A DNA stretch of 64,000 bases, from NCBI RefSeq assembly GCF_030013595.1, contig NZ_CP122768.1; one strand, written 5' to 3'. Below the pieces are notes generated by a model that worked only from the letters and a program-made list of their open reading frames with translations, did no database searches and was not told the DNA's origin. The first letter of the stretch is position 1. Each line of letters begins with the position of its first letter. Positions 3,561 through 17,067 of this stretch are shown in pieces. The position numbers and the translations under genes are program-made. Source of the DNA: Escherichia coli. GTDB lineage: Bacteria; Pseudomonadota; Gammaproteobacteria; Enterobacterales; Enterobacteriaceae.

Positions 3561-4415
3561 TCAGGGTGCAAGCTGTCTGACCCTTTCCCGATATTCTCCC
3601 GGAGTACAACCAAACTCGCGGACAAACGCCTTGTGAAAAGATGATTCACTGGCATAGCCTACTGACTCAGCGATCACCACAACAGGGAGCGTTTCCCGGG
3701 AAAACATCTGGGCCGCTATTTGTAGACGCAACTTTGTTAATACAGCTAGCGGCGTGGTTCCGGAAACATCACGGAAAAGCTGGGCAAAACTTGCCCGGGA
3801 CATGTGGGCGATGCTGGCCAGCGATTCGACGGTCCAGGCATGTCCTGGCATTTCCAGCATTTGCTGTATTACCGCACCAAGACGTGGATGCAGAAGCAAA
3901 CTGAGAATGTTTTTCTCTGTATTAACCTGTGCAATCCACTCACGCACCGCGAGGGTAAAGAATGTAGCGCAGATCTGGCTACACAGAGCATCCACTCCCG
4001 GCATTGCCGATCTGGATTCCTGTTGTAAAAACGGGATCGCCTCCCTCAGCCAGTTATATTCCACGCTATGGTTCACTGGTGCTACAAACAGCGTTTCCGG
4101 CAAAGACGTTAAAAAATAACGCGCCGAATGTTGCAGCCGAAGAGTGCCACAGACAATACAGGTCGATTCATTATCGACATGACTCAGGCGATGAGCTGAA
4201 TTTTGTGGTAGCAGGACCACATTTCCCGGGCGTAATGTAAAAATCTCTCCCGTCGGCATTTCCAGCTTCGCCGCTCCTTGCGTTAACGCATGCCAACGAA
4301 TAACCGACAATTCCCCGGCACCATGTGGAAGTTGCCAGTCACTTCCTAACACGCAATTCTTATCGATCGTTCCTTGTGGAGCGTTAAGCATCAACAAACG
4401 GCTAAGAGCATCCAT
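3561..4415 (-). CDS. rclR: AraC-family reactive-chlorine-responsive activator RclR (YkgD)
   Basis: 284 aa with a C-terminal AraC-type double HTH (..SRASFAQLFRDVSGTTPLAVLTKLRLQIAAQMF..GYASESSFHKAFVREFGCTPGEYR). Divergent from rclA. Confidence 0.9.
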   Translation of the reverse strand: MDALSRLLMLNAPQGTIDKNCVLGSDWQLPHGAGELSVIRWHALTQGAAKLEMPTGEIFTLRPGNVVLLPQNSAHRLSHVDNESTCIVCGTLRLQHSARYFLTSLPETLFVAPVNHSVEYNWLREAIPFLQQESRSAMPGVDALCSQICATFFTLAVREWIAQVNTEKNILSLLLHPRLGAVIQQMLEMPGHAWTVESLASIAHMSRASFAQLFRDVSGTTPLAVLTKLRLQIAAQMFSRETLPVVVIAESVGYASESSFHKAFVREFGCTPGEYRERVRQLAP

Positions 4416-4641
4416 ATCAGACTCCTGAGTAGTTTTTTAATTACAAACACCAACAATCTTAGTCAATAATTAATCTAATACCATCAAATAGTTAATCATG
4501 ATTTTTGTTTTGTGATTCTGATTAAGAAAAAGAAAATACCAGACGATAAGACAAAATATCAAGCGTTGTGAAGAAATGTTATGTGCTCTTTTGCGTCTAT
4601 AGTCATGATGTCAAATGAACGCGTTTCGACAGGAAATCATC

Positions 4642-5862
4642 ATGAATAAATATCAGGCAGTGATTATTGGTTTTGGCAAGGCTGGAAAAACATTAGCCGT
4701 CACGCTGGCAAAAGCAGGTTGGCGTGTGGCTCTCATCGAACAATCAAATGCAATGTATGGCGGGACCTGTATTAATATCGGCTGTATCCCAACCAAAACA
4801 TTGGTTCATGACGCACAGCAGCACACAGATTTTGTCCGTGCCATACAGCGTAAAAATGAAGTGGTTAATTTTTTACGTAATAAGAATTTTCATAATCTTG
4901 CGGATATGCCCAATATCGACGTGATCGACGGCCAGGCGGAGTTTATCAATAATCATAGCCTGCGTGTTCATCGGCCTGAGGGAAATCTGGAGATTCATGG
5001 CGAGAAAATTTTTATTAATACCGGTGCACAAACCGTGGTTCCGCCAATTCCTGGAATTACCACCACGCCTGGTGTATATGACAGCACCGGATTACTTAAT
5101 CTAAAAGAATTGCCTGGGCATTTAGGTATTTTGGGCGGCGGATATATTGGCGTTGAGTTCGCCTCTATGTTCGCTAATTTTGGCAGCAAGGTAACCATTT
5201 TAGAAGCAGCTTCGCTGTTTTTGCCTCGGGAAGATCGGGATATTGCTGATAATATCGCGACGATTTTACGCGATCAGGGCGTCGATATTATCCTCAATGC
5301 CCATGTGGAGCGAATCAGTCACCATGAAAATCAAGTGCAAGTGCATAGCGAGCACGCCCAACTGGCGGTGGATGCACTGTTAATAGCTTCCGGTCGTCAA
5401 CCAGCTACCGCTTCGTTACATCCAGAAAATGCCGGTATCGCAGTAAACGAGCGCGGGGCAATTGTCGTTGACAAGCGATTACATACCACCGCAGACAATA
5501 TTTGGGCGATGGGAGATGTTACCGGCGGGCTGCAATTTACTTACATATCACTAGATGATTACCGCATTGTACGTGATGAGTTACTGGGTGAAGGCAAACG
5601 TAGTACTGATGATCGGAAAAATGTGCCTTATTCCGTATTTATGACACCGCCCCTGTCCAGGGTTGGTATGACAGAAGAACAAGCCAGAGAGAGTGGTGCT
5701 GATATTCAGGTGGTGACATTGCCTGTAGCTGCAATTCCGCGCGCCAGAGTGATGAACGATACCCGTGGGGTATTAAAAGCGATTGTTGATAATAAAACCC
5801 AACGTATATTAGGGGCATCACTGCTGTGTGTTGACACGAGAGTATTCAAAACACGCCAATAA
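4642..5862 (+). pseudogene. rclA: rclA (ykgC) 5' portion, truncated by island insertion; 398 native codons plus 8 foreign codons (TRVFKTRQ*)
   Basis: MNKYQAVIIGFGKAGK (FAD-binding GxGxxG) and the GGTCINIGCIPTK redox-disulfide motif. The native sequence ends at ..GASLLCVD (5834). The remaining 42 codons are found at 16583-16711. Confidence 0.9.
5835..5841. repeat. Left junction direct repeat (attL core candidate) CACGAGA
   Basis: The identical 7-mer recurs at 16583-16589, exactly where the rclA reading frame resumes. A TATTCAA motif lies adjacent (5843-5849). Confidence 0.6.
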
Positions 5863-5903
5863 CCTCTTGATTCAATTGAAGTCGAAAATTTTAAGTCAAA
5901 AAT

Positions 5904-5929
5904 CGTATAGCTTAACGTGTAGCTAAAAA
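5904..5929 (+). repeat. Island-internal arm repeat, left copy (CGTATAGCTTAACGTGTAGCTAAAAA)
   Basis: Near-identical (1 mismatch) direct repeat of 16432-16457. Contains a palindromic TAGCTA hexamer (5920-5925). Confidence 0.7.
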
Positions 5930-5987
5930 TGTTTGCTGCAAAAGTATACAATTTTAACCGTTATGACTCCCTGTTATCCGTTATCAA

Positions 5988-6156
5988 GCTGGTGGATGAT
6001 CATGGATAACCCGTTATGGGAATCCCCATATCGGCATCAGGCCCATGCCATAACAAAAACCCCATATTCGTGGGTTTTCTGTGTTGTGGCTATTCTGCCG
6101 TTGCCGTGCTGGTGGATATTTCCGGTATGTGGCTCACCATATCGGCATCACGCCCA
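5988..6156 (+). repeat. Imperfect ~120-bp tandem duplication upstream of the cos-like site
   Basis: GCTGGTGGAT occurs at 5988-5997 and 6108-6117. CCATATCGGCATCA(G/C)GCCCA occurs at 6026-6045 and 6137-6156 (19/20 identical). Confidence 0.65.
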
Positions 6157-6201
6157 CCAGCGCGACGCATTTTTTTAATTTCGCGGGTGTAAAAATTTGA
6201 C

Positions 6202-6216
6202 GGGGCGGGCGGTCCT
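6202..6216 (+). other. Candidate lambdoid cosN-like site (GGGGCGGGCGGTCCT)
   Basis: TTGACG|GGGGCGGGCGGTCCT resembles the lambda cohesive-end region TTACG|GGGCGGCGACCT (recalled). It is flanked by the repeat A(T)TTTCCG(G)TATGTGGCT at 6118-6134 and 6262-6278, and by a GGGAT-UUCG-ATCCC hairpin at 6234-6247. Confidence 0.45.
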
Positions 6217-6479
6217 ATAAGCAATGGGGGGTAGGGATTTCGATCCCCCCTCCTGAATGCAATTTTCCGTATGTGGCTGTGCGGCAATCATACTCGTCAC
6301 ATGTTTTTGACAATAAAAGGCCCGACCGTGAGACTCACAAACAAAAAAGTTACGGAGAAACAGGGGATCGGGCTCGGTTGCCGCTAAATCTATTCAATTA
6401 AAAGAAGATGTCAATAGGGAAAACGAAAAAAAACAATGCTGATATTGTCATAATTTGAACAAAACCACTATATGTAGTT

Positions 6480-6710
6480 TTAGTTCATGAGGTTAGTCGC
6501 TACCAGATGCGTCAATAGTTTTTTGCTATTAATAATCCCTCTTTTTCCATCGGGAGCTTTGCACTTGTCACTACCTGGTAACTCCTGGTGGCGTTCCTGT
6601 TGCAGCACAACGGAAACAGGCGCTGAACACCTGTTAATTTTGCTTGCAGGTTGTTTGATTTCGGCAATGCTGCGGATCATCTCCAGCATATCGGCTTCGG
6701 TGATGGTCAT
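6480..6710 (-). CDS. Hypothetical 76-aa protein (last gene of the satellite late block)
   Basis: ATG preceded by AAGGTG 7 nt upstream on the minus strand. No family recognised. Confidence 0.5.
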   Translation of the reverse strand: MTITEADMLEMIRSIAEIKQPASKINRCSAPVSVVLQQERHQELPGSDKCKAPDGKRGIINSKKLLTHLVATNLMN

Positions 6711-6717
6711 GATTTAC

Positions 6718-6994
6718 ACCTTAGGAAATCTTAGGGGCTGGTTGACACTTTCCGGCTTAAGACCTTAACAAATCTTAACATCGCAGGTTGACACACTTGA
6801 CACTTTTTCGCGAAAAACCTTATCAAACCTTAGCATTTCTAAGCATGGCAACTTGACACTTTTCGCGATTTTTTCGGCTTTTTGACGTGGTAAATCTGGC
6901 GCAAAGCCAGTAACGGCGGGGTTTACAGCGAGGTTGACACTTTTTCGCGTTCAGAGTGTAAAGTGTCAACCTGGCAAGCTGCTCAACTTGACAC
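6718..6994. repeat. Iteron array: TTGACAC repeats interleaved with paired ACCTTA/ATCTTA half-sites
   Basis: TTGACAC at 6742, 6788, 6797, 6853, 6934 and 6988. Variant TTGACGT at 6882. Inverted copy at 6963-6969. Three A(C/T)CTTA pairs with 10-bp spacing at 6718/6728, 6762/6772 and 6817/6827. Confidence 0.85.
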
Positions 6995-7003
6995 TTTTTG
7001 AGG

Positions 7004-7531
7004 TCATTGATGGCCTGATTTTTCCCACTCAGCCAGGGCGTTTAGTCCGGCTTCACTCCAGTTATCCAGCTCATCGGGACAATCACCTGCAACATAGCAG
7101 AGCTCACAACGCAGCATACGAATTGCCAGCCTGGCATTTTCCCGAAAATCATACTGCTCAAAGTAATATTGCCCAGCATAATCCTCAAGGCAGATAGCAC
7201 CATCATCAAGAAATTGCACTTCACAGCATAGTTCCCCGGCTGCATCCTGTACACGCTGCTGTATGTCATTGTCCGTTACTGGTGCAGGGATTTTACCGTC
7301 TCTGGCCTTAACTGCTTTCCAGAACTCGCCCCACGTCATTTCCAGCGTTCTCTCTGGCCACATTTCAGAAACGGTATCTTTTCCCTGTGCTGGTGGGCTG
7401 TTCCGCTGCTCTGTCGCTTCCACATCGATTTTTTTACCGGACATGACCACTTCGCCTTTCTCGATCCAGTCGTAAACTGTCTGGCGGCTTACGCCTTTGT
7501 GTTTGGCATATTCTGCCTTGCTCATAAACAT
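7004..7531 (-). CDS. Nu1/TerS-like N-terminal HTH protein (candidate small terminase or packaging-redirection factor)
   Basis: The N-terminus MSKAEYAKHKGVSRQTVYDWIEKGEVVMSGKKI parallels the lambda Nu1 winged-HTH (MEVNKKQLADIFGASIRTIQNWQEQGMPV, recalled). GAGGGGA RBS. The gene abuts the TTGACAC array. Confidence 0.5.
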   Translation of the reverse strand: MFMSKAEYAKHKGVSRQTVYDWIEKGEVVMSGKKIDVEATEQRNSPPAQGKDTVSEMWPERTLEMTWGEFWKAVKARDGKIPAPVTDNDIQQRVQDAAGELCCEVQFLDDGAICLEDYAGQYYFEQYDFRENARLAIRMLRCELCYVAGDCPDELDNWSEAGLNALAEWEKSGHQ

Positions 7532-7701
7532 GACACTTCCCCTCAGACTGTATTAATGCGCCGGAAAGCGCGTGTATTTAAATCATCCCAGGAACCGTTG
7601 AGCACCAATTAGTTGCGCGAAGTAATCGGCACCAGCGTTCCGAACAATTTCCAACTTAACGTTCTGATCATTGTTTCCTGCTGCAGGGACAATCCCACGA
7701 T

Positions 7702-8355
7702 TCATAGCCAGCGCCCGGATATTTCTTCCAGTTTTTCCAGAGCTGGCTTGCAGGCCGCATCAATAACTTCACGGACCATTCCGGCGAGCTGTTCTTCTTC
7801 TGTCGGCGTTGTTACTTCCACACCTGATGGTTTCCCGCCCTTATCCCATACGCCCAACGGTACGAGCGCAACGTGATCGATAAGAAATGGCGTACCCTCA
7901 ATGAAAAAATTGTCCTCGCCCATTACATCAGGAACTTCTGCCCCACCGGACGCACCACAAAACACAACCGACGGGCTGGTGGATACCTCCCCCCGTGCTT
8001 TCTGGATGTAATCGATGATTTCCTGCCCGTAAATCCGGCATACGCCCCACACCTCGTCACCGCGAATATACGGCAACATGACGGTGCCAATAATGCGCGA
8101 CCGTTCGCCCACGTCTTCAAGGGTTTTGCTTTCGGGATGGTCGATAATGACGGGTACTCCGGCGCAACGTTCCAGGAACTGCGGATTGAGATAAGTTTGC
8201 GGTGAACGCCAGACAAATTCTTTTTCTTCGGCGCGATAGGCCATTCCGGTTCCTGTGATACGCAGGTTAATCAGCCACATGTTGGAAAACTGATAAGGCG
8301 ACGGTAGCTGACCGTCCCGAATCTGCTTTGCCGCCTCAATTTCTGTTAAAAGCAT
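7702..8355 (-). CDS. Putative prohead protease/scaffold-like protein (GPO / DUF2213-like)
   Basis: 217 aa. Segment order VIIDHPE .. IGTVMLPYIRGDEVWGVCRI .. VSTSPSV .. LIDHVALVPLGVWD parallels P2 gpO (RINLEH .. KWALFAKI .. VYTSMEI .. YLVGLAVTDDPA, recalled). The similarity is weak. Confidence 0.35.
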   Translation of the reverse strand: MLLTEIEAAKQIRDGQLPSPYQFSNMWLINLRITGTGMAYRAEEKEFVWRSPQTYLNPQFLERCAGVPVIIDHPESKTLEDVGERSRIIGTVMLPYIRGDEVWGVCRIYGQEIIDYIQKARGEVSTSPSVVFCGASGGAEVPDVMGEDNFFIEGTPFLIDHVALVPLGVWDKGGKPSGVEVTTPTEEEQLAGMVREVIDAACKPALEKLEEISGRWL

Positions 8356-8419
8356 AATGTCCCCCGGTTATAAGCAATAAGCCCCACCAAATCCGGCAGG
8401 GCTGAAATCAGCACGTTTT

Positions 8420-9004
8420 TCATGCCCCCGCGAGGCTTGCAACGTTAATTTTAACCAGGCGACGGGGAGGGATTTTGAAAGCACTAAGCCAGTTATTCGG
8501 ATCCCCCTGATATTCAGTAATCCGCCGTCCGGCTTCATCCATTCTTACGGTTTTACGCAAATAGCCCGGCGTATTTTCCACAGCCCACTGAACACTGTCT
8601 TTTGCAGCCTGGTAAATCTGATCTTCCAGCACCGCCAGCGTTGCAGAATCTGAAACGGAACGAATATCCACATCACTGAATTTTTTAGCCAGCTTCTGTG
8701 CACCAATTAATGCACGCTTGCGGTAATCCATCGACTTTTCACCAGCAAACGGGGCTGGAGCGCGACGGCCCATATTGCTGTATGCGGAATCCGCTTTAGC
8801 CTGGGCTTCTGCCAGTGAGGATTCATCTTCGACTGACGCGACGATGTTTTTATTCGCGTCATCCTCGTCCGCTTTTGTGAAATCCTGTGCGGGGATCGCA
8901 TTCAGAATTTCGATAATCTCCTGCGGAGTGCTGCCCTGCGACTCTGACAGAGCGTTAACCACCTCCATCAGTTTTAATCGCAAATCTTCTTTGCTTGCTG
9001 GCAT
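8420..9004 (-). CDS. Hypothetical 194-aa protein with acidic/helical N-half (possible scaffold or capsid-size factor)
   Basis: ATG at 9002-9004 with an AGGTGG RBS (the ORF-track GTG start lies 9 nt upstream). Located between the protease-like gene and a small RBS-bearing ORF. No family recognised. Confidence 0.5.
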   Translation of the reverse strand: MPASKEDLRLKLMEVVNALSESQGSTPQEIIEILNAIPAQDFTKADEDDANKNIVASVEDESSLAEAQAKADSAYSNMGRRAPAPFAGEKSMDYRKRALIGAQKLAKKFSDVDIRSVSDSATLAVLEDQIYQAAKDSVQWAVENTPGYLRKTVRMDEAGRRITEYQGDPNNWLSAFKIPPRRLVKINVASLAGA

Positions 9005-9043
9005 TTTTACCACCTCTCTTTTTTCACCAAAAAATCACGACCA

Positions 9044-9223
9044 TCAGGCCGGACGTTCTACGGGATAAAGCGCCCGCTGCATTAAACGCCGGGCGACCTC
9101 ATGAATGCTCGGAGCAATCCCCAGCGGAGAATTGCGGCGTTCCTCGTCCTGGATGCGCTGTAATGCTTCAATCTGATCACGAGCGAGTAAAACGGGTTTC
9201 ACGCTGGCTTTTCTCATAGTCAT
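9044..9223 (-). CDS. Hypothetical 59-aa protein
   Basis: MTMRKASVKPVLLARDQIEALQRIQ... The start at 9221-9223 is preceded by AGGAG 5 nt upstream. First ORF after the bidirectional terminator region. Confidence 0.45.
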   Translation of the reverse strand: MTMRKASVKPVLLARDQIEALQRIQDEERRNSPLGIAPSIHEVARRLMQRALYPVERPA

Positions 9224-9352
9224 ATCTCCTGAACAAAACAATGATTATGATTGCACAAACTGAAATAACGATCTACATCATTGCAATTTATGAAACAATA
9301 ACGCATGATGATCGCGTTCTTCCCATTGACTTCAATCACCTGAAAAACAAAG

Positions 9353-9381
9353 CCCGCAACACTTCTGGCTGCGGGTTTTTT
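9353..9381 (+). terminator. Intrinsic terminator on the + strand with no convincing + strand gene upstream
   Basis: CCCGCA (9353-9358) pairs with TGCGGG (9370-9375), followed by TTTTTT. Confidence 0.5.
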
Positions 9382-9389
9382 ACTGGCAC

Positions 9390-9413
9390 AAAAAAGCCGG
9401 GAAAAATCCCGGC
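9390..9413 (-). terminator. Intrinsic terminator after the PerC-like gene
   Basis: GCCGGGA (9396-9402) pairs with TCCCGGC (9407-9413). On the minus strand the hairpin is followed by a T6 run (A-run at 9390-9395 on +). Confidence 0.65.
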
Positions 9414-9418
9414 CTCCG

Positions 9419-9706
9419 TCACTGACTGCAATTTTTCGATCCAGGGTATTTCCTGAATGCCTTACCATTGGGCTGATGTAATCCCATCCCGGCATGTGCC
9501 CGGCTGATGGTTTCGCGCATTTCCCCGAAATTATCCTGCCTTGCTGGTGGGCGTGCTGCCTTGCGGATACATTCCGCGCGACGTTTTGCCGCCTGTTCCC
9601 GTGCCTTGTCATCATTCGCCAGCATGATGACCTCAGCCCACCGCGCCGCCGCTCTCCGGTACAGACCACGCGCTTCCAGTGCTTCCGCTTTGCTGTCGTG
9701 AATCAT
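9419..9706 (-). CDS. PerC/Pch-like small transcriptional activator
   Basis: 95 aa. The N-terminal motif KAEALEARGLYRRAAARWAEV fits the LE.xG.xRRAA.RW signature I recall for the PerC family. ATGA overlap with the upstream ProQ-like gene. Confidence 0.5.
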   Translation of the reverse strand: MIHDSKAEALEARGLYRRAAARWAEVIMLANDDKAREQAAKRRAECIRKAARPPARQDNFGEMRETISRAHAGMGLHQPNGKAFRKYPGSKNCSQ

Positions 9707-10245
9707 GCGCCTGTTTTCTCCTTTGCTGCCCGGCGCTGACGTTTGCGCTTCTCATTCAGCGCCACCAGCCGCGTTTCTGCGTCCTGTTGTTCCTGTGGTG
9801 TCACCTCGCCGCACGGCTGGCCTTTCAGGTCGTAGCGTACCCCACCAGCCATTAAGGCGCGGTAATAGCGCGGACACTGCGCATAAGATGCCAGCGTCGC
9901 ACGCAATGCCCCTGGACCGAATGCCAGCCCCCTGACGGCGAGATCCTGCATCAGGTCGTCGAATATCCCCACCTTAAGCGGCTTCGGTGCTTCCCGGCTG
10001 AATAATTCAGGCCACAACTCAGTGAGGCGGTTAACGCGCCTGCGGTTTTTGCGCTGGCGTTTGGTCATATGCCGCCACGGTGTCGCCCCTGTGGGCTTCT
10101 GCTGCGCTTTCTGGTTACCGGGCATCACTTTATGCGCCGATGTGGTTTTATCCTGCTCCTGCGCCGCCTGCGTCGTTTTCTGCGGCGTGCCGTAAATGCC
10201 TTTCGGTTTTCTGTTAATGGTCAGCTTAGTCATGCTTTGCCCCAT
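9703..10245 (-). CDS. ProQ/FinO-domain RNA-binding protein
   Basis: LTELWPELFSREAPKPLKVGIFDDLMQDL...ALRATLASYAQCPRYYRALMAGGVRYDLKGQPCGEVTPQE aligns residue-for-residue in pattern with the ProQ N-terminal domain (FPHCFS..RPLKIGIFQDL..LRSALRLYTSSWRYL..RVDLDGNPCGEL, recalled). Confidence 0.75.
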   Translation of the reverse strand: MGQSMTKLTINRKPKGIYGTPQKTTQAAQEQDKTTSAHKVMPGNQKAQQKPTGATPWRHMTKRQRKNRRRVNRLTELWPELFSREAPKPLKVGIFDDLMQDLAVRGLAFGPGALRATLASYAQCPRYYRALMAGGVRYDLKGQPCGEVTPQEQQDAETRLVALNEKRKRQRRAAKEKTGA

Positions 10246-10326
10246 CGTTTTTACTGGTTGCTACGTTGCCCAACGGCACTGACACAACATTCTGTTTTCA
10301 TTTTTAACATTCCTGATTTTTTAATT

Positions 10327-10708
10327 CCTCACCTGCTGCACAGTGAAAATTTATGAAGTTAATAACAATATGATTTTAAATGTATTTTTAAGTACTCACT
10401 TTTTAATCCTTATATATACGCAAAAGTGAGGTAAATAGTTAAGTTTTAGTTAATATCTTGCATGGTGTGTTTTTTAACCTACCTGTTATTTTTATTACCT
10501 CATTTCTATTAACTCACCATTCCTCACTTTTGTTCCTCACTTTTTATTATTCTTGTTCTGCTCCTCAGTCGTTTTCTTTATTGTTGTAATCTGTTGTTTT
10601 GCAATGTGTTTTTAACTCCTCACTTTTTGACCTATATACAGGTGAGAAAGTGAGGAGTGGCGTTGATTTTTTGTTAAATTACCCGCCATCCTCACTTTTG
10701 CTCCTCAC
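10327..10708. repeat. Replication-origin iterons (CCTCAC(T)TTT) in AT-rich DNA directly 3' of the replicase gene
   Basis: CCTCAC at 10327, 10522, 10535, 10618, 10690 and 10703. Inverted GTGAGG at about 10426 and at 10650. Variants ACTCAC (10394) and CCTCAT (~10498). Long T/A tracts lie between them. Confidence 0.8.
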
Positions 10709-10711
10709 TTT

Positions 10712-12127
10712 TTACAGTGGGCGCACATAATCACCGTCAATAGCGATTACGCCGTCGCTTTCCAGCTTGTACAGCCAGCGCCGGAAGTTTTTCATTTCAT
10801 ACCCCAGCTTTTTCATATCATCGCGGAGAAGGGCGATAGTGCACGCCTCCCCGTGTGCTGTTCGCGTTCTGATGCACTGCCATAGCGCAGCGTGATTTTC
10901 CGTCTTGTTCCCGGCCTCCTCGATGCGTTCCAGTTCAACAGGTGGGCGCGGCTTATCCACAACCACCAGCGACGTGATTAACTCCCCGTCAGTGTCGGTA
11001 AAAAGCTCCACCACGCGTAAATCATATGCAGCCTCTTTCAGTTCCTCCGCGTCCTTCATTTTGGTGCAGGAGATAACCAGGGCTTCACTGTCCGCACCTT
11101 CACGGCGAATACGGTATTCAGCGTCCAGAGATGCACGAAATGCACTGGAACCACGCGCCCCTTTTGTTTCATCCTTGCCGGAATGGTGAACCACCAGTAC
11201 CGTGGCCCCTGTGCGTCGTTTCAGTTCGTCACATCCACGGATAAACGCCCCCATATCCCGCGCGTCATTTTCATCATTACCGCCAAAGCAACGCGCCAGC
11301 GTATCCAGAATAATCATGCGTACCGGTTTACCCGTTTCCCGTTCAACCTGACGGGAAGCGATGACCATTTCATCAACATCAAGCGGGACCGCCGGAAAAA
11401 TCGGGCGGTTTACCAGGTACAGATTTTTCACCCGTTCATCATTAACGATTTCCCATGCTTTGATACGACGAGGAACACCGATCCCGCCCTCACCAACGAC
11501 ATACATAACCGCACCATGTACAACCCTGCGACCTCCCCAGTGGCGACCAGTGGCAACATGACACGCCCAGGAACACGCGAGGAACGATTTATAGGAACCG
11601 CTCGCGCCGTATGTGCTGCACAACGAATTAGCCGGAATCACGCCCTTAACGACATAATCAAGCTGTGTGTCGTATCCTGCAGATCCAATACTCATTGGTA
11701 GCGTGGTTTTTCGCTGGCTGTATTGCTCGTCAGTAAGTATTTCCCCGCGCTCTGCCTGTTCGCGGATCCGTTGCAGGTAGTCGTGCCAGTTCTCCAGCTT
11801 CTGGCTGTGCATTCCCTCAGGGTAATAATTCGCATCCCGTACACCTGCCGCCGCCAGTTTTTGCCCGATGGCATTAATATTTGACGGCTTGATGTGGCCT
11901 GCCTTGTACAGCCGGACACAATAGCGACCATCGTCGATAATTTTCAGGTCTGCCAGTTCGTCAAGCTGGCTGTCTCCCAGCCATACAGGCGGAACATTGT
12001 CGCCAGCAAGTCGCCCGTCCTGTTCCTGCCATTGTTTCGCGTGCGCCCAGGCATCACTACCCGCAAAAATAATGACTTCGGTCATTTTGTCGTGTGGCTG
12101 TTTTTTTAAGTTCGGTGCCAGTTTCAT
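10712..12127 (-). CDS. Satellite replicase: RepA/AAA_25-type (RecA-fold) ATPase with N-terminal primase-like region and C-terminal wHTH
   Basis: 471 aa. Walker A YGASGSYKS, Walker B MIILDTLARCFGG, and VLVVHHSGKDETKGARGSSA (DnaB/RepA-like motif). Iterons follow the stop codon. Confidence 0.75.
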   Translation of the reverse strand: MKLAPNLKKQPHDKMTEVIIFAGSDAWAHAKQWQEQDGRLAGDNVPPVWLGDSQLDELADLKIIDDGRYCVRLYKAGHIKPSNINAIGQKLAAAGVRDANYYPEGMHSQKLENWHDYLQRIREQAERGEILTDEQYSQRKTTLPMSIGSAGYDTQLDYVVKGVIPANSLCSTYGASGSYKSFLACSWACHVATGRHWGGRRVVHGAVMYVVGEGGIGVPRRIKAWEIVNDERVKNLYLVNRPIFPAVPLDVDEMVIASRQVERETGKPVRMIILDTLARCFGGNDENDARDMGAFIRGCDELKRRTGATVLVVHHSGKDETKGARGSSAFRASLDAEYRIRREGADSEALVISCTKMKDAEELKEAAYDLRVVELFTDTDGELITSLVVVDKPRPPVELERIEEAGNKTENHAALWQCIRTRTAHGEACTIALLRDDMKKLGYEMKNFRRWLYKLESDGVIAIDGDYVRPL

Positions 12128-12423
12128 TTTGTGCCCCTGAATGCGTTAATCATGTTTTTCATTTTCTGAATATTTGCCCGTGCCTTTGCGTTGCTGGTGG
12201 GCTGTTTGCGTGGTGTGGCCTGTATCAGTGAAAAATCACGCCGGAACTGATAAACAGGCATCACGCAGTCGTAGCTGTACCCATCACGGCGGTAAGTAAC
12301 GCACCGTCCGGCAATACTTTTAATCGTTACCGTGCCGCCGTAGTTATCCCGGAAAATATCGCCGGGGCGGATTTCAGGCCGAGGGAGACCACTGGCAGTA
12401 AAGCCAGAATTTTTCTTTTTCAT
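12124..12423 (-). CDS. Small conserved protein (DUF4222-like)
   Basis: 99 aa. IRPGDIFRDNYGGTVTIKSIAGRCVTYRRDGYSYDCVMPVYQFRRDF resembles DUF4222 proteins of P4-like prophages (recalled). ATGA overlap with the replicase. Confidence 0.45.
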   Translation of the reverse strand: MKKKNSGFTASGLPRPEIRPGDIFRDNYGGTVTIKSIAGRCVTYRRDGYSYDCVMPVYQFRRDFSLIQATPRKQPTSNAKARANIQKMKNMINAFRGTK

Positions 12424-12427
12424 GGTT

Positions 12428-12628
12428 TTATTTTCCTGTCAGCAGTTCCGGTTTTATTTCCGCACGAATACAGAGTTCAGAAAAAAATTCAGGAGAACCA
12501 ACAATCTCATTACTTTTCAGTCGGCATTGTGATTTCACTTTCCCTTTATCCAGGTAAACCAGTATGCGTCCGGTGAAATCATCTGGCACACTCAGGGTAA
12601 TTGTCATTGTTGCTTGCTGATTATCCAT
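12428..12628 (-). CDS. Hypothetical 66-aa protein, one copy of a ~45-aa DxFTG module
   Basis: VPDDFTGRILVYLDKGKVKSQCRLKSNEIVGSPEFFSELCIRAEI. 8-nt overlap with the upstream gene. Confidence 0.55.
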   Translation of the reverse strand: MDNQQATMTITLSVPDDFTGRILVYLDKGKVKSQCRLKSNEIVGSPEFFSELCIRAEIKPELLTGK

Positions 12629-12986
12629 GATTCACCCCCTGAATAACCTGATAACCGCAACTGGTCAGCAATTCGATAAATTCCGGCAGTGTTCCGAAAC
12701 AGCAATCATCTCGCAGCCGTTCTCGGGATACTTCAACGCCGTTTTCGTAGTGACTCACCATGCGTCCGGTAAAATGCAGATCATCATCGTGATGGCTCGT
12801 TAACGGCTTAATCAGTCGCGCACGTTCTGCCAGCTCCAGCAATGCTTCAACGCTTCCGGCAATTGCACCATCCGGCAGGTGATAATTACTTGCCACGCGT
12901 CCATTCTCCACGTTAACCAGTAGCTGCCCGGTGAATTTCTCATCAAACTGAATGCTGTTAAGGTCAGAAATTGACAGGTTAATCAT
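12621..12986 (-). CDS. Hypothetical 121-aa protein, two copies of the same DxFTG module
   Basis: FDEKFTGQLLVNVENGRVASNYHLPDGAIAGSVEALLELAERARL and DDDLHFTGRMVSHYENGVEVSRERLRDDCCFGTLPEFIELLTSCGY. 8-nt overlaps on both sides. Confidence 0.55.
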   Translation of the reverse strand: MINLSISDLNSIQFDEKFTGQLLVNVENGRVASNYHLPDGAIAGSVEALLELAERARLIKPLTSHHDDDLHFTGRMVSHYENGVEVSRERLRDDCCFGTLPEFIELLTSCGYQVIQGVNHG

Positions 12987-13344
12987 GGCGTACCTCCTGG
13001 CGAATACGGGCAGCGAATACCATCACGCAGCCATCAGGAGATTGCTGGCGTGCTTCCTGTTCGCTGGTGGCCACGATGTGAATCACGCGCGGTTGTGCGG
13101 TGCTCAGGGCGATAAAACGCCAGATAAAATTGTTTTCGCATTTCTGAATAAACAGCGTGTTTTCTTCGCGCCCTTTCCATGTTGCCGAGATATAGCCCAT
13201 GCCATTGAGCATCTCGCAGGCATCAACCAGCGTATCAGCGGCTACGTGTACAGTGTTTTTACCGTCAGCTATGCAATCACGGTGCACCGCCAGGAAGGTG
13301 TATATAAATTTAGGGTGAGTTTGGGTATGCTGTGTTCCAGCCAT
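12979..13344 (-). CDS. Icd-like (host cell division inhibitor-like) protein
   Basis: 121 aa from the ATG at 13342-13344 (GAGGT RBS): MAGTQHTQTHPKFIYTFLAVHRD ... NNFIWRFIALSTAQPRVIHIVATSEQEARQQSP..VFAARIRQE. This is the FIW.F.A / SE.EAR signature of Icd-like proteins (recalled). It is the only credible part of the 478-aa ORF. Confidence 0.55.
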   Translation of the reverse strand: MAGTQHTQTHPKFIYTFLAVHRDCIADGKNTVHVAADTLVDACEMLNGMGYISATWKGREENTLFIQKCENNFIWRFIALSTAQPRVIHIVATSEQEARQQSPDGCVMVFAARIRQEVRHD

Positions 13345-13446
13345 AATCGTTACCTCATTTAACGGTTTGGTTAGAAGCCCCGTTACTGCTCCAACAGTGC
13401 GGGGCTTCGTCGTTTCAATTGCTGAATTGCATGTATCAGCCCTTGT

Positions 13447-13499
13447 GGTATTCAGATTACATTTTGGTGAATACCATTTCAAGTCTTTTTTGGTATTCA
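13447..13499. promoter_or_regulatory. Operator-like repeats in the divergent region between the Icd-like operon and the RHH gene
   Basis: GGTATTCA (13447-13454), inverted TGAATACC (13468-13475), and GGTATTCA again (13492-13499). A 9-bp-stem hairpin GAAGCCCCG..CGGGGCTTC lies at about 13373-13407. Confidence 0.45.
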
Positions 13500-13543
13500 C
13501 TTTTGTATTACACTGCATCCCGTTATTAATCGGAGGTGCAAAC

Positions 13544-13849
13544 ATGTCCACGAGTTCTGTTAACAATAAGTCACAGCAACTGAATGCCAGATTTCCACAT
13601 GAAGTAGTGAGTGGCATTGAGGCATCCCTACAGCCAGGGGAAACTAAAGCGAATTTTATAGTTACGGCTGTACGCGGTGAGATCGCCCGCCGCCAGGCAG
13701 AAGGAAGCGGAGAAAACCCCCTGGTTTCTTCGCTCGATGCGCTGGCGCAGGTGGAAAAAATCGGAGTCAAAGCTGCCGAGGAGATCGGGCAGCTCGTCAC
13801 CGTCGCACGTGAAGAACTCCAGCGCCGCAAGGCCAAAGAATCAGAATAA
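13544..13849 (+). CDS. YlcI/YnfO-family (DUF3950, ribbon-helix-helix-like) protein, candidate island regulator
   Basis: 101 aa from the ATG at 13544 (GGAGG RBS 7 nt upstream). KSQQLNARFPHEVVSGIEASL..KANFIVTAVRGEI resembles K-12 YlcI (NIRFPNQMIEQINIAL..GNFSAWVIEAC, recalled). It is one of very few + strand genes in the island. Confidence 0.6.
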   Translation: MSTSSVNNKSQQLNARFPHEVVSGIEASLQPGETKANFIVTAVRGEIARRQAEGSGENPLVSSLDALAQVEKIGVKAAEEIGQLVTVAREELQRRKAKESE

Positions 13850-13906
13850 TAACTATCATCGCCGTGGTGTGAGGAACTCCGGCGCATTGCTTTACAGGTA
13901 CACAGA

Positions 13907-14107
13907 ATGACCAACAAAGAATCAACCAAAACACCATCACCAACCCGGAAGAGACGTCGCAAAAATATGACGCACGAGCATGAATCAGACAGATTCGCGC
14001 CGTGTGCGTTTGTCCTTGAGACGTTCCTTAAAGAGTACAGGCGCACAAAATTAGGGCCACATACCTGGAAAACATCGCGACATAGCGATATTAAAGAGCA
14101 GGAATAG
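13907..14107 (+). CDS. Possible basic 66-aa protein
   Basis: ORF only. Weak RBS, Lys/Arg-rich N-terminus, lies upstream of the + strand terminator. Confidence 0.25.
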   Translation: MTNKESTKTPSPTRKRRRKNMTHEHESDRFAPCAFVLETFLKEYRRTKLGPHTWKTSRHSDIKEQE

Positions 14108-14216
14108 CCCACCAGCAAGTCAGCATATTCACCATAATGACCCTCGGTTAAACCTAGAGTCATTGGTGCAAACCTGACACATTGCCCACCAGCCAGCAAA
14201 TCGCTATGATATTTGG

Positions 14217-14268
14217 GCTTATGTTTAGTGTTTTCCCATTGGCGACCGCCCCCGGTCGCCTTTGTTTT
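14217..14268 (+). ncRNA. Candidate ~50-nt small RNA (promoter plus strong terminator, no ORF)
   Basis: TTGCCC (14182-14187), a 17-nt spacer, then TATGAT (14205-14210). The terminator has GGCGACCG (14241-14248) pairing with CGGTCGCC (14253-14260), a CCCC loop, and TTTGTTTT. Confidence 0.3.
14241..14268 (+). terminator. Strong intrinsic terminator ending + strand transcription before alpA
   Basis: 8-bp GC-rich stem, 4-nt loop, U-tract. Confidence 0.75.
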
Positions 14269-14364
14269 GCCCGTTATCCGGCAATTGTGGCGCTTCGCCA
14301 CACGGTTGATATAATTCCCCTGCACTGATCCATTTTTTTCGCAGCAGGTTAATTGTTCGCAAGG

Positions 14365-14389
14365 GCGCTCCGGCAACGGGGCGCTTTTT
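14365..14389 (+). terminator. Second + strand intrinsic terminator
   Basis: GCGCTCC (14365-14371) pairs with GGGGCGC (14378-14384; one G-U pair), followed by TTTTT. Confidence 0.5.
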
Positions 14390-14419
14390 GTTATGTTCAT
14401 CGCGTTACGCCTCACACCA

Positions 14420-14626
14420 TTACGCAGCCGTTCCGCGCGCTTCTTCCTCGCGCTCTTTCAGCCAGGCCAGCACTTCATCTTCATACCAGCCAACACGACG
14501 CAGACCGATTTTGAAGCCTTTCGGGAATTTTCCGGCGTTGATCATGTCCTGTAGCGAACTGTCTGCCTTGATGCGCAGAATATTTTTTACTTCCTGACGG
14601 GTAAGTATTTTTCTGATTGTTTCCAC
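14420..14626 (-). CDS. alpA: AlpA-family transcriptional regulator / excisionase-like HTH protein
   Basis: 68 aa. ILTRQEVKNILRIKADSSLQDMINAGKFPKGFKIGLRRVGWYEDEVLAWL is the typical AlpA/CP4-57 regulatory motif. Confidence 0.85.
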   Translation of the reverse strand: METIRKILTRQEVKNILRIKADSSLQDMINAGKFPKGFKIGLRRVGWYEDEVLAWLKEREEEARGTAA

Positions 14627-14697
14627 TATGTTTTACCTCGTTAATCCGGCGTATTCCGGTGATAAATACGGTAAAACAGGGCAGGGCGGGAAAAACA

Positions 14698-14731
14698 GTA
14701 CCCACCGTTTTAAAACGGTACCCACTGTTTT
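14698..14731. promoter_or_regulatory. Direct repeats upstream of alpA (GTACCCAC(C/T)GTTTT x2 around a CCGTTTTAAAACGG palindrome)
   Basis: Copies at 14698-14711 and 14718-14731. They lie between the upstream terminator and the alpA start. Confidence 0.45.
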
Positions 14732-14760
14732 TATCTCATTGATTACGCTTTTCTTTCTGC

Positions 14761-14791
14761 AAAAAAATAGCGACCGCAAAGGGCCGCTATT
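14761..14791 (-). terminator. Intrinsic terminator separating the int-orf unit from alpA
   Basis: The minus strand reads AATAGCGGCCCTTTGCGGTCGCTATTTTTTT, a hairpin followed by a T7 run. Confidence 0.6.
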
Positions 14792-14795
14792 GTGA

Positions 14796-15026
14796 TTACC
14801 GTTTCCACTTCTTAGGTCGCCCACCGCATTTAAGGCTGGTGGGCCTCAGCACCTTGTCGATGCTTTCAGCCAGATTTTTCGATGCACCACGCGAGCGCAA
14901 AAAACTGACTACCTCGTGTTTTGTGGGGGCTGTTGATTTGTCTTCCGGATCGTATGTTGACCAGAATTCACGATTTGCCATTAACGCCAGTTGCAGCCCT
15001 TCGCCGTAGGCGGTGGTATTTTGCAT
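14796..15026 (-). CDS. Hypothetical 76-aa protein downstream of int
   Basis: ORF with a basic C-terminus (GGRPKKWKR). No family recognised. Confidence 0.45.
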   Translation of the reverse strand: MQNTTAYGEGLQLALMANREFWSTYDPEDKSTAPTKHEVVSFLRSRGASKNLAESIDKVLRPTSLKCGGRPKKWKR

Positions 15027-15124
15027 AATAGAATTTTCATATACTCCGGCCTTGTCGTTAAATTTGTGGCAATTATACGATGGTTTGGCATGGTTTGCAT
15101 CGCTTTTACTGGCTTTTTGTACAG

Positions 15125-16366
15125 CTACACGGCACGGATACCCCTTTTACCGCTGGCTATGGTCACTCCGGTAGCTGCAGCCTCCACAAATTCACCCCAC
15201 CAGCGCATAAGCACCACGCGCTTTTCCAGGTAGTTACTTCGGTTATATGCCCGCCTTACCTCGTTCGTGTCCACGTGTGCGAGTGCGGCCTCGATTACGT
15301 CCGGTTCGAATCCTTCCTCGTTCGCTGCTGTGCTGAATATGGCGCGTAATCCGTGAGACACCAGCACACCAGCGTAACCCATCCGGCGTAATGCAGCGTT
15401 AGCGGTCTGGCTGCTCATTGGCAGCATCGGATTTTTAAGGCTGGGAAAAACGTGTTCCCTGTGTGCGCTGATTGGCTTCATGGTTTCCAGTACAGCCATA
15501 GCCTGACCGCAAAGGGGGATCACATGGTCACGGCGCATCTTCATGCGTCCGGCTGGAATCGTCCAGGTTTCGGCATCGAGATCTATTTCTTCCCAGCGTG
15601 CGGCGGCTGCTTCGGCTGGGCGTGCTACGGTCAGCAGTTGCCACTCAATCAGCAATCTGGTTTGCCGTTCTATGCTGGCGACCGATAAATCGTGCATTAG
15701 CTGCGGTAGCTGTTCCGGTCGGATGGTTGGCATGTGCTTTTTGGTGGGTGAGGGGAATGCCTTGCGGACGTTCGCGGCGGTGTTGATGTCAATCAGCCCA
15801 CTGTTGGCGGCAAAATCCATCACTTCATTGATGCGCTGCAAAACGCGTTTCAGAGTTTCCAGGTTGCCGCGTGCTTTAATGGGGGTGAGTATCTCAACAA
15901 AGCGGCGAGCGGTGAGGGTATCTATTGGCGTGTTTCCGATGTACGGGAATACGTATTTTTCCAGGGATCGCCAGATATCCTTAATCGTGTTGTAAGCCAG
16001 ATTCTGGCCTTTTTTCATCTCGTACCAGTCCGAGGCAACTTTTTCGAACGTGTTGCCCTTTTTCCGGCTCTCTGCTTCACGTTTCCGGCGTTCATGGTCC
16101 TGTGGGTCAGTTCCCTTTGCTATTAGTGACCTGTATTCATTCCGTCGCTCTCTGGCATCAGACAGGGAAACATCATTCAGCGATCCAAGGCTGATAATAG
16201 TCCGTTTTTTATCTGCCGGGCGGTAGTACGTAAAACGCCATATTTTTGATCCGGAGGGCTTCACCAGAAGAAATAATCCTCCGCCATCCTGCAGGGTGTA
16301 TTCCTTTTCCCCTGGTCGTGCGTTTTTGATCTCCGTAATGGTTAGTGGGGTGGTTTTTCGTGCCAT
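15125..16366 (-). CDS. int: P4-type tyrosine integrase (DUF4102 arm-binding N-domain)
   Basis: 413 aa. N-terminus TEIKNARPGEKEYTLQDGGGLFLLVKPSGSKIWRFTY. Catalytic region ...LTVARPAEAAAARWEEIDL...HGLRAIFSTAANE...ALAHV..NEVRRAYNRSNYLEKR (R..HxxR..Y). Confidence 0.92.
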   Translation of the reverse strand: MARKTTPLTITEIKNARPGEKEYTLQDGGGLFLLVKPSGSKIWRFTYYRPADKKRTIISLGSLNDVSLSDARERRNEYRSLIAKGTDPQDHERRKREAESRKKGNTFEKVASDWYEMKKGQNLAYNTIKDIWRSLEKYVFPYIGNTPIDTLTARRFVEILTPIKARGNLETLKRVLQRINEVMDFAANSGLIDINTAANVRKAFPSPTKKHMPTIRPEQLPQLMHDLSVASIERQTRLLIEWQLLTVARPAEAAAARWEEIDLDAETWTIPAGRMKMRRDHVIPLCGQAMAVLETMKPISAHREHVFPSLKNPMLPMSSQTANAALRRMGYAGVLVSHGLRAIFSTAANEEGFEPDVIEAALAHVDTNEVRRAYNRSNYLEKRVVLMRWWGEFVEAAATGVTIASGKRGIRAV

Positions 16367-16383
16367 GTTTTTTTACCCATCGG

Positions 16384-16457
16384 TAGCTATATGCCTGGTC
16401 GTAGCTATACGGCTTTAGCTACACGCTGGACCGTATAGCTAAACGTGTAGCTAAAAA
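16384..16457. repeat. Integrase-proximal arm-site cluster: five palindromic TAGCTA hexamers plus the right copy of the 26-bp arm repeat
   Basis: TAGCTA at 16384, 16402, 16416, 16436 and 16448. CGTATAGCTAAACGTGTAGCTAAAAA at 16432-16457 matches 5904-5929. Confidence 0.7.
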
Positions 16458-16504
16458 ATCCGGTTATAACCCTATCTTACCGATTCAATCCGGCGACTGA
16501 AAAC

Positions 16505-16540
16505 AACAAAAAAGCCCGTTAATCAGTAAATTAACGGGCT
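16505..16540 (-). terminator. Strong hairpin/terminator just inside the right island end
   Basis: AGCCCGTTAAT (16513-16523) pairs perfectly with ATTAACGGGCT (16530-16540). On the minus strand it is followed by TTTTTTGTTGTTTT. Confidence 0.65.
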
Positions 16541-16582
16541 TTCAATAGGTTACCGATGCTGTCCGATATTCAATTTGGTCGG

Positions 16583-16589
16583 CACGAGA
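16583..16589. repeat. Right junction direct repeat (attR core candidate) CACGAGA
   Basis: Identical to 5835-5841. A TATTCAA motif lies at 16567-16573. Confidence 0.6.
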
Positions 16590-16711
16590 TGATCAATATA
16601 GTGAAAATGGTGATGGATGCCGGGCTGCCTTATAGCATATTACGCGATCAGATATTTACTCATCCGTCGATGAGCGAATCACTCAATGATCTATTTTCAT
16701 TAGTCAAATAA
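16583..16711 (+). pseudogene. rclA: rclA 3' fragment (last 42 codons plus stop)
   Basis: HEMINIVKMVMDAGLPYSILRDQIFTHPSMSESLNDLFSLVK* is the C-terminal interface-domain segment, with the HPxxxE dyad, of the oxidoreductase begun at 4642. Confidence 0.9.
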
Positions 16712-16819
16712 ACTCAAAATCAGACGCCAGAACAAATATTCTGGCGTCTCAGAGAAAAGAATCTTATTAATTCCCTGTTACTTTATAACTTCTTAATCAC
16801 TTCATTGATGGTATTTTAT

Positions 16820-17056
16820 ATGTTTAAAAAACCTGTTTTATTTGCAACACTATTATCTGGCGTTATGGCATTTTCCACCAATGCAGATGATAAAATAATT
16901 CTGAAACATATCAGCGTCTCGTCAGTATCAGCATCACCGACAGTTCTTGAGGATGCCATTGCTGATATGGCCAGAAAATATAATGCTTCATCCTGGAAAG
17001 TTACATCGATGCGAATTGATAATAATTCAACCGCAACAGCAGTATTGTATAAATAA
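16820..17056 (+). CDS. rclB: RclB (YkgI), small periplasmic DUF1471/YhcN-family protein
   Basis: 78 aa from MFKKPVLFATLLSGVMAFSTNA (signal peptide). Position between rclA and rclC. Confidence 0.85.
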   Translation: MFKKPVLFATLLSGVMAFSTNADDKIILKHISVSSVSASPTVLEDAIADMARKYNASSWKVTSMRIDNNSTATAVLYK

Positions 17057-17067
17057 GGATGTTCACA

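Follow-up and report, generated by a model that had tools for sequence, protein, structure and literature searches.

How did a phage satellite come to lie inside rclA, a gene of oxidant defence, and could the gene be restored if the satellite left? These questions are raised by a stretch of 64,000 nucleotides (nt) from Escherichia coli (contig NZ_CP122768.1, assembly GCF_030013595.1), referred to here as the window, in which rclA is interrupted by an insert of 10.75 kb, core to core, resembling a Gram-negative phage-inducible chromosomal island (PICI). Given the evidence below, we put at roughly 85% the probability that a PICI-type satellite integrated at a secondary site in rclA, leaving RclA truncated, rclBC cut off and the knockout irreversible. 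RclA is reported to be a very fast E. coli hypothiocyanite (HOSCN) reductase (PMC9335216), and rclABC mutants are sensitive to hypothiocyanite, an oxidant of innate immunity (PMC12096828).

The coding sequence of rclA is split

Residues 1-398 of RclA are encoded at 4642-5835 with 99.5% identity to K-12 RclA. In a tblastn search of the window with the K-12 protein (441 amino acids), residues 1-399 aligned to 4642-5838 (99.5%) and residues 400-441 to 16583-16708 (100%). A preliminary description of this DNA had rclA split by a satellite, and open reading frame (ORF) translations, tblastn and the gene content of the island all bear this out. The Asp398 codon (5833-5835) closes the sequence ...GASLLCVD, ending at 5835 rather than at 5834 as first given, and the eight island codons said to follow it (TRVFKTRQ) are indeed there, with a stop at 5860-5862 and a product of 406 amino acids. 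The tail (HEMIN...SLVK) lies in frame where it had been placed, as 42 codons at 16583-16708 with the stop at 16709-16711. The segment lost from the truncated protein, Ser399-Lys441, has the 43 residues counted earlier and includes H426-P-S-M-S-E431, confirming that the His-Glu pair is on the detached piece. The two halves do not abut perfectly, as 4 nt (CTCC/TCCC, including the Ser399 codon) are absent at the left junction.

The exact 406-residue protein was found in one contig among about 15 billion proteins, contig 15 of the Logan assembly SRR19716120. This contig breaks 2 nt past the stop codon of the truncated RclA, at the island edge, as would be expected if that genome held further copies of the island or of its end, such as another island at proL.

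The integrase normally targets proL

Islands of this kind were sought in 5,426 complete E. coli genomes, of which 5,108 have a full-length match to the rclA query region. A query of the integrase gene and adjoining arm (window 14400-16582) matched 104 complete genomes over at least 80% of its length, and all the close matches sampled (96.6-98.4% identity) lie over tRNA-Pro. A shorter query, the final 190 bases of the arm, matches 93 places in 89 genomes; 59 of 60 among the matches listed overlap tRNA-Pro. In STEC379, for instance, the island is flanked by yejO and by the proL tRNA, which neighbours yejM. Integrases from islands at proL share 99.5-99.8% identity with that of the window.

The attachment sites themselves can be compared. 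The attP of the island could be read directly in two metagenome contigs (...CCGATATTCGATTTGGTCGGCACGAGAGTATTCAAAAC...), while the empty proL site of K-12 reads ...GATTTTTGGTCGGCACGAGAGGATTTG..., and the two share 17 bp, TTTGGTCGGCACGAGAG. Wild-type rclA reads GTTGACTCCCACGAGATGATC and has only CACGAGA in common with attP; two flanking triplets, an upstream TTG and a downstream GAT, are also shared with the proL site. The right junction in the window, TTTGGTCGG-CACGAGA-TGATC, is exactly attP-left, core and rclA-right, and retains the satellite-derived, proL-like bases TGGTCGG. Because attP shares 17 bp with proL and only 7 bp with rclA, and because the right junction has this hybrid form, the insertion appears to be a secondary-site integration by an integrase whose dominant attB is elsewhere, at proL. 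The preliminary description did not see rclA as an off-target, although tRNA-Pro is the target of the family to which both integrase and attP belong, and the right junction is proL-like.

The attP sequence lies at 8135-8167 of CYGL01000727.1 (10,713 bp) and at 2855-2887 of AVOA01000223.1, in each case running from the integrase gene through the complete attP into the distal end. Both contigs are excised, circular or tandem versions of islands related to this one; CYGL01000727.1 has no terminal overlap. The joint is compatible with excised or tandem forms and is no proof of packaging. Searches for the attP and rclA junctions returned only an integrated left junction from another enterobacterium in IMG/VR and none in the GTDB species representatives.

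According to PMC10111431, which cites Rutkai et al. 2006, the use of secondary sites when the primary site is unavailable is the classical picture. The insertion is like other off-target integrations, such as those at the secondary sites of lambda or those of HE-PICIs (Tommasini et al. 2023, PMC10111431), in having a clear primary site and a rare second site with a short core. It differs from these in that the same secondary site is used repeatedly, by two integrase sub-lineages, and within a host oxidant-defence gene. No mention of rclA/ykgC as an integration site was found in the papers searched or in the supplements of two papers from the Williams laboratory.

Insertions recur at one position in rclA

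Recurrence was examined with a 160-nt query spanning only the right junction; a longer query that required similar cargo had returned ETEC6335 alone. The junction query was fully covered in four complete genomes (MFDS1022581, U90, Z1323CEC0010 and ETEC6335), and TW08637, with a different arm, has the same TTTGGTCGG-CACGAGA-TGAT junction. In total, satellites occupy this exact position in 5 of the 5,426 complete genomes, and 4 of the 93 copies carrying this arm are found there. The rclA islands range from 8.8 to 12.3 kb and differ in cargo, three carrying major-capsid and head-decoration genes and that of TW08637 a major-capsid gene. Their integrases are 99.8% identical to that of the window in four genomes and 82.8% in TW08637, and their distal arms are of two kinds (TATTCAAAAC... 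and TAGTTTAATTG...). The flanks of the window and ETEC6335 differ right up to both junctions, with about 3-11 mismatches per 500 bp, and the replication modules of the two islands are only 95% identical. All six rclA insertions, that of the window included, have an identical right junction. Since the islands differ in size, cargo, arms, integrases, flanks and the state of the left junction (see below), the insertions go back to several independent integrations at a single nucleotide position.

In at least three of the five genomes (ETEC6335, U90 and Z1323CEC0010) proL is also occupied by an island, which fits the use of a secondary site when the primary one is unavailable. Within the literature searched, rclA is new as a recurrent secondary site for proL PICIs, and it suggests that satellites already present at the tRNA site go on to place additional copies at a reproducible off-target position in a host defence gene. 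In ETEC6335 the integrase proteins of the proL and rclA islands are the same; identity between the two islands is 99.85% across the distal 4.8 kb and only 96.7-97.8% elsewhere, and the rclA island has an extra primase pseudogene segment. From this pattern the two appear to be mosaic relatives, not a simple duplication.

Bases are lost at the integrase-distal junction

The left junction expected from recombination is GTTGACTCC-CACGAGAG-TATTC; the window has GTTGA-CACGAGAG-TATTC, 4 bases short. Among the rclA insertions, U90 and MFDS1022581 have a complete left junction, TW08637 has lost 1 nt there, ETEC6335 and Z1323CEC0010 have each lost 3 nt, and the window 4 nt. The corresponding junction at proL varies in the same manner: Z0117EC0133 has it complete, whereas a single nt is missing from STEC367, STEC383, ETEC1732, EC43 and the proL copy of ETEC6335, two from EC-107, and four from STEC379, UMNF18, ETEC1747 and one contig of a different enterobacterium. 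At both rclA and proL the losses invariably stop immediately 5' of CACGAGAG; the core copy on the tRNA side at proL is always complete. The form lacking 4 nt also occurs with an integrase family of 78% identity.

Damage to the displaced tRNA fragment at tRNA-Pro is presented in PMC10111431, citing Williams 2002, as a property of PICIs not seen for prophages, and is suggested there to debilitate the tRNA gene on excision. The losses described here are alike in being of variable length (0, 1, 3 or 4 nt at rclA; 0, 1, 2 or 4 nt at proL) and in ending at the same point. In contrast to that damage, the target here is protein-coding and the lost bases are rclA's own, and the suggested addiction-like role has no obvious counterpart. 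The bases lost at rclA come from the target, and attP never contained them. The damage therefore depends neither on tRNA sequence nor on attP variation, which implicates the integrase reaction itself. Junction damage in a protein-coding target, and its deciding whether the knockout is reversible, are new within the literature searched.

Three other origins of the short junction were considered. A pre-existing rclA allele without the Ser399 codon was absent from the 5,108 genomes with a full-length match, the best full-length matches (97.6%) being wild type. An attP lacking TCGG, with crossover in TTTGG, was dropped given the full 17-bp core of the metagenome attP and the existence of undamaged left junctions. 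A heterologous 7-bp overlap like that of Tn916 or IntDOT was dropped in view of undamaged left junctions at proL (Z0117EC0133) and at rclA (U90 and MFDS1022581).

The consequence for reversibility was followed by excision in silico at the CACGAGA repeats. In the window this gives GTT GAC ACG AGA TGA, that is Val-Asp-Thr-Arg-stop, with the stop after 400 residues. The product also has a stop in TW08637, loses Ser399 in frame in ETEC6335 and Z1323CEC0010, and is wild-type rclA in U90 and MFDS1022581. Recombination between the CACGAGA copies of the window is predicted to regenerate the full attP, ...TTTGGTCGGCACGAGAGTATTC..., and to leave GTTGACACGAGATGATC, 4 nt short, as the rclA junction of the source strain. 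Because the 4 nt missing at the left junction turn excision into a frameshift and stop, the knockout of rclA would be permanent in the window strain, and junction damage can in this way make an insertion irreversible.

Predicted consequences for RclA and rclBC

The truncated RclA keeps GFGKAG (the FAD-binding GxGxxG motif) and the CINIGC redox disulfide, and matches Pyr_redox_2 with an E-value of 1e-61. The Pfam dimerisation domain, Pyr_redox_dim, covers residues 328-435 of the intact protein; the truncated form retains profile positions 1-70 of 110 and the orphan tail positions 73-108, leaving the truncated protein without the C-terminal His-Glu pair and without a complete dimerisation domain. 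Two cysteines, a histidine and a glutamate are key catalytic residues that superpose in Har, RclA (6KGY), MerA, GR and TrxR (PMC11107202, the Har structure), and solved homologues align with RclA out to residues 429-441. Since His426, Glu431 and about a third of the dimerisation (interface) domain are lost, the truncated RclA is predicted to be inactive, without reductase activity protecting against HOSCN or hypochlorous acid (HOCl). In all five comparable genomes the Prokaryotic Genome Annotation Pipeline (PGAP) annotates rclA as a pseudogene.

The rclABC genes are thought to form one operon transcribed from the RclR-driven rclA promoter, with no promoter of their own assigned to rclB-rclC, and mutants lacking rclA, rclB or rclC are each sensitive to HOSCN (PMC12096828). 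The separation of rclB-rclC from that promoter by more than 10 kb, noted in the preliminary description, amounts to 10.75 kb of opposite-strand genes. Over 4300-17800 there are 33 terminator-like sites, compared with 16.1 +/- 4.0 in shuffles. The preliminary description also placed several terminators before rclBC, citing a hairpin at 16513-16540; this hairpin is real (16510-16543) but has its T-tract on the minus strand, and it is other sites, at 14241-14260 and 14361-14388, that are the better terminator-like sites on the rclA strand within the insert. A consensus scan from the rclA tail to rclB (16583-16820) detected no promoter-like site, and hence no sign of the independent rclBC promoter that had been named as evidence to the contrary. 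A transcript from the rclA promoter would cease to be translated at 5862 and then run for 10.7 kb antisense to island genes and through plus-strand hairpins. Because of this antisense stretch, the plus-strand terminator-like sites and the lack of a promoter-like site before rclB, RclR-dependent induction of rclBC would probably be lost.

The events may then be pictured as follows. A tyrosine integrase that would normally recombine the 17-bp core of attP with the identical 3' end of proL would here have used a site in rclA sharing the 7-bp CACGAGA (codons 399/400-402) and a few flanking bases. The crossover would leave satellite-derived proL-like bases at the integrase-proximal junction, while the integrase-distal junction would lose 4 nt of rclA beside the crossover, with the same variable-length damage as at tRNA sites. 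RclA, truncated at residue 398 and deprived of His426/Glu431 and about 40 of the 110 dimerisation-domain profile positions, would have no protective activity against HOSCN or HOCl. The coding sequences of rclB and rclC would remain intact but lose their induction beyond 10.7 kb of convergent genes and plus-strand terminators. Excision via the CACGAGA repeats would leave the 4-nt deletion, making the knockout irreversible. Strains with the insertion, which come mostly from livestock and food sources, are predicted to be natural rcl-null mutants and could serve as ready-made controls for the role of the rcl operon in the host.

The insert resembles Gram-negative PICIs

Gram-negative PICIs are laid out with the integrase and alpA genes first, one-way transcription, a replication initiator with an adjacent origin, and few packaging genes (PMC6092414). 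The island ORFs were scanned with Pfam and PHROGs, and repeats were grouped in direct (D) and inverted (I) families (Table 1). The integrase and alpA genes lie at one end, and transcription is unidirectional, nearly all island genes being on the minus strand with the exception of two small plus-strand ORFs. The island has its own replication initiator (RepA/AAA_25) with adjacent iterons, which from their position and repeat structure form a probable replication origin. Its 10.75 kb are within the roughly 10-15 kb expected of such satellites, and it has no complete complement of structural or lysis genes of a phage, the phage-type genes being limited to TerS-like and protease-like ORFs. Based on these genes, the insert is best classed as a PICI-type phage satellite of the Gram-negative kind.

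It is like the EcCICFT073 and EcCIO42 type (Fillol-Salom et al. 2018, PMC6092414) in its size of about 11 kb, its int/alpA end, its single direction, its initiator followed by iterons and its few packaging- or capsid-related genes, and E. coli 042 has a related island with the same gene order at proL. It differs in lying inside a protein-coding gene and not at the tRNA site of its family, and helper dependence, induction and packaging are putative. Satellite phage P4 is comparable in its tyrosine integrase of the P4 type for a tRNA 3' end, its AlpA/Vis-like regulator, its Icd-like gene and its helicase-based replication, whereas the gene order of the island is that of PICIs. None of the island ORFs scanned matched the sid, psu, delta or epsilon families; small ORFs without any match remain. 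Gene disruption by off-target integration, the PICI gene content and PICI junction damage are all already known, and this is no new kind of system. The findings are useful for work on rcl or on satellites, and not surprising.

Alternative explanations

Several points weigh against the interpretation favoured here. The proL locus lies outside the window, which has no tRNA gene in its 64 kb. The rclA query segment matches 151 plasmid places in the 5,426 genomes, and an intact plasmid copy is possible in the source strain; a second intact rclA, which the preliminary description gave as grounds for rejecting its claim, was not found by tblastn in the window, but plasmid-borne rclA is known in other E. 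coli. We infer both the inactivity of RclA and the polarity on rclBC from the sequence. A weak independent rclBC promoter may escape a consensus scan, and rclB and rclC RNA is about 10-fold below rclA RNA, leading the authors of that study to suspect additional, more complex regulation of the operon (PMC12096828). The excision product was computed assuming a crossover within CACGAGA, and the 4-nt loss may date from integration or later.

The RNA difference and an island ATG at 16556, in frame with the rclA tail, would also suit a functionally silent insertion, in which the 398-residue RclA is active, perhaps complemented by the ORF at 16556-16711, and rclBC is expressed from its own promoter or by read-out from the island. 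We regard this as unlikely. The catalytic His426 and Glu431 are on the detached piece, the interface domain is short of about one third, the scan shows no promoter-like site ahead of 16556 or of rclB, and the PGAP calls of a pseudogene agree. The neighbouring island genes all point away from rclB, and the nearest plus-strand ORFs precede the terminator-like sites at 14241-14388. A single ancient insertion spread by homologous recombination, in place of recurrent off-target integration, would account for the right junction shared by all six insertions, and E. coli readily exchanges chromosomal segments. It seems somewhat less probable than a silent insertion, as the six islands differ in size (8.8-12.3 kb), cargo, distal arm and integrase subfamily (82.8% versus 99.8%), the flanks of the window and ETEC6335 differ right to both junctions, and left junctions are intact or lack 1, 3 or 4 nt. 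An artefact of assembly or a chimera is hardly credible with the same truncated RclA in an independent short-read assembly (SRR19716120), equivalent junctions in five complete genomes, and a junction structure exactly as expected from integrase-mediated recombination.

Regulated gene integrity, or active lysogeny, would instead make the satellite a dedicated and reversible rcl switch, with excision on cue restoring rclA. Recurrence at one position in several independent events is a hint of such a system in Mageeney et al. 2020 (PMC7192596), and, as in the comK, sigK and mlrA prophage switches described there, a conserved domain is interrupted and attP carries no replacement for the lost gene end. 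In U90 and MFDS1022581, moreover, excision from the undamaged left junction would restore wild-type rclA. Unlike in those switches, the integrase of the window is not dedicated to the site. The dominant site of its family is proL, with about 89 of the 93 copies with this arm, and most genomes have a 99.5-99.8% identical integrase there; the right junction is tRNA-like, with only 7 bp of identity to rclA. Nor would excision restore an intact ORF in the window or in TW08637, where a frameshift and immediate stop would result. No excision scars, that is rclA alleles lacking 1, 3 or 4 nt, occur among the 5,108 genomes with a full-length match, and a search with a GGTCGGC replacement allele brought up nothing closer than the wild type. 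Induction of a helper phage usually ends in lysis. PICI excision is tied to such induction (PMC6092414). A dedicated switch is therefore very improbable, slightly more so than a single ancient insertion, and the "excision-dependent switch" of the preliminary description does not hold for the allele in the window. A related idea is that rclA is a preferred alternative docking site, with about 4% of arm copies and two integrase sub-lineages, where, just downstream of the RclR-controlled promoter induced by HOSCN or HOCl, transcription under immune-oxidant stress would enter the distal end and could couple satellite behaviour or host oxidant tolerance to the oxidative burst of the host, undamaged alleles being restorable and junction deletions making the knockout permanent. 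This is unlikely, to nearly the same degree as a silent insertion. Secondary-site integration with a permanent knockout of rclA thus remains our preferred reading of the window.

Features of the locus and the island

Table 1. Features of the rcl locus and of the inserted island, with positions in the window.
Feature	Position	Strand	Basis or remark
rclR (284 aa), intact; regulator of the divergent rclA promoter	3561-4415	-	ORF; annotated rclR in matching loci
rclR-rclA intergenic region with RclR-dependent rclA promoter, undisturbed	4416-4641		Collinear with K-12 and ETEC6335; promoter assignment from PMC12096828
Truncated rclA: codons 1-398 (to 5835), 8 island codons and stop	4642-5862	+	
Left (integrase-distal) junction, core copy CACGAGA; preceding rclA CTCC absent	5835-5841	+	Alignments with K-12 rclA, attP and five other rclA insertions
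Repeat CGTATAGCTTAACGTGTAGCTAAAAA, also copied near the other end; putative arm-type integrase-binding site	5904-5929	+	Family D13; kept in attP contigs
TTGACAC(TTTTT) repeat cluster, gene-poor, at the distal end of the satellite	6742-7003		Families D2, D5, D10, I12, I21
Helix-turn-helix (HTH) protein, weakly like terminase small subunits	7004-7531	-	phrog_57 (E 5e-7), HTH_17; DUF1441/TerS annotated here in related islands
DUF2213 / head-maturation-protease-like protein	7702-8355	-	PF09979 (E 2e-6); phrog_6216 (E 2e-79); phrog_530
Protein matching the C-terminal part of phrog_6216	8420-9013	-	
PerC-family transcriptional activator	9419-9706	-	phrog_994, phrog_10396; PGAP name in ETEC6335
ProQ/FinO-family RNA-binding protein	9703-10245	-	PF04352 (E 8e-24)
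Iterons (CCTCACTTTT and inverted copies) directly downstream of the helicase gene	10387-10714		Families D1, D14, I1, I3, I6
RepA-type helicase, satellite replication initiator (pri-rep equivalent)	10712-12127	-	AAA_25 (E 2e-44); phrog_2850 (E 2e-248); phrog_906
DUF4222 protein	12124-12423	-	PF13973 (E 3e-24)
Two small phrog_340 proteins (12428-12628, 12621-12986)	12428-12986	-	
Icd-like / repressor-like domain, ORF start uncertain	12985-13143	-	phrog_6196, phrog_1743; "Icd-like" by PGAP in related islands
Two small ORFs (YlcI/YnfO-like phrog_6522; phrog_21027), sole island genes on the rclA strand	13544-14107	+	
Best terminator-like hairpin on the rclA strand in the island (GGCGACCGCCCCCGGTCGCC then TTTGTTTTGC)	14241-14260	+	
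AlpA-family regulator	14420-14626	-	PF05930 (E 4.5e-8); phrog_66
Tyrosine integrase, 413 aa, intact, with arm-DNA-binding domain	15125-16366	-	PF00589, PF22022, PF13356
GTAGCTA-type repeats including the second D13 copy (16432-16457); putative arm-type sites and integrase promoter region	16384-16457	+	
Strong hairpin and T-tract	16510-16543	-	Same sequence next to tRNA-Pro in STEC379
TGGTCGGCACGAGA, reverse complement of the last 14 nt of tRNA-Pro(GGG) proL	16576-16589	-	16576-16582 from attP; 16583-16589 core copy common with rclA (right junction)
Orphaned rclA tail: codons 400-441 and stop, including His426 and Glu431	16583-16711	+	
rclB, intact	16820-17056	+	YdgH/BhsA-like domain
rclC, intact	17068-17661	+	DUF417

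Some features in Table 1 merit comment. The cluster at 6742-7003 holds at least five copies of TTGACAC(TTTTT), direct and inverted, and one might guess at a packaging or regulatory site. A 478-codon ORF with a GTG start (12979-14415, minus strand) spans the variable region, has a family match only at its C-terminal, Icd-like end, and shares its DNA with two plus-strand ORFs for which PHROG matches exist; it is probably no real gene. At proL, the island pushes the tRNA's own terminator to its far end, and the hairpin at 16510-16543 comes directly downstream of the tRNA, where it probably acts as a replacement terminator for proL and also insulates the integrase gene. The 51-codon ORF at 16556-16711 joins the island ATG and MLSDIQFGR to RclA residues 400-441, in frame with the tail; upstream of it there is no promoter-like site, and only a weak AGG nine bases before the ATG. 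An Rfam scan of 4300-17800 gave zero matches.

Other changes to rcl were also encountered. The swine E. coli plasmid p1916D6-1 (NZ_CP046001.1, 73.5 kb) has at 5248-8285 an intact rclA of 441 codons between two IS1 copies, without rclR, rclB or rclC, which looks like a gene mobilised by IS1. The chromosomal locus is interrupted by IS1A or ISVsa5 in one genome each (NZ_AP042623.1 and NZ_CP027126.1), and the rclA part of the query is without a match in about 300 of the 5,426 complete genomes. Given that other elements interrupt the locus and that these genomes lack a match to the rclA segment, E. coli strains that have naturally lost rcl function are not rare.

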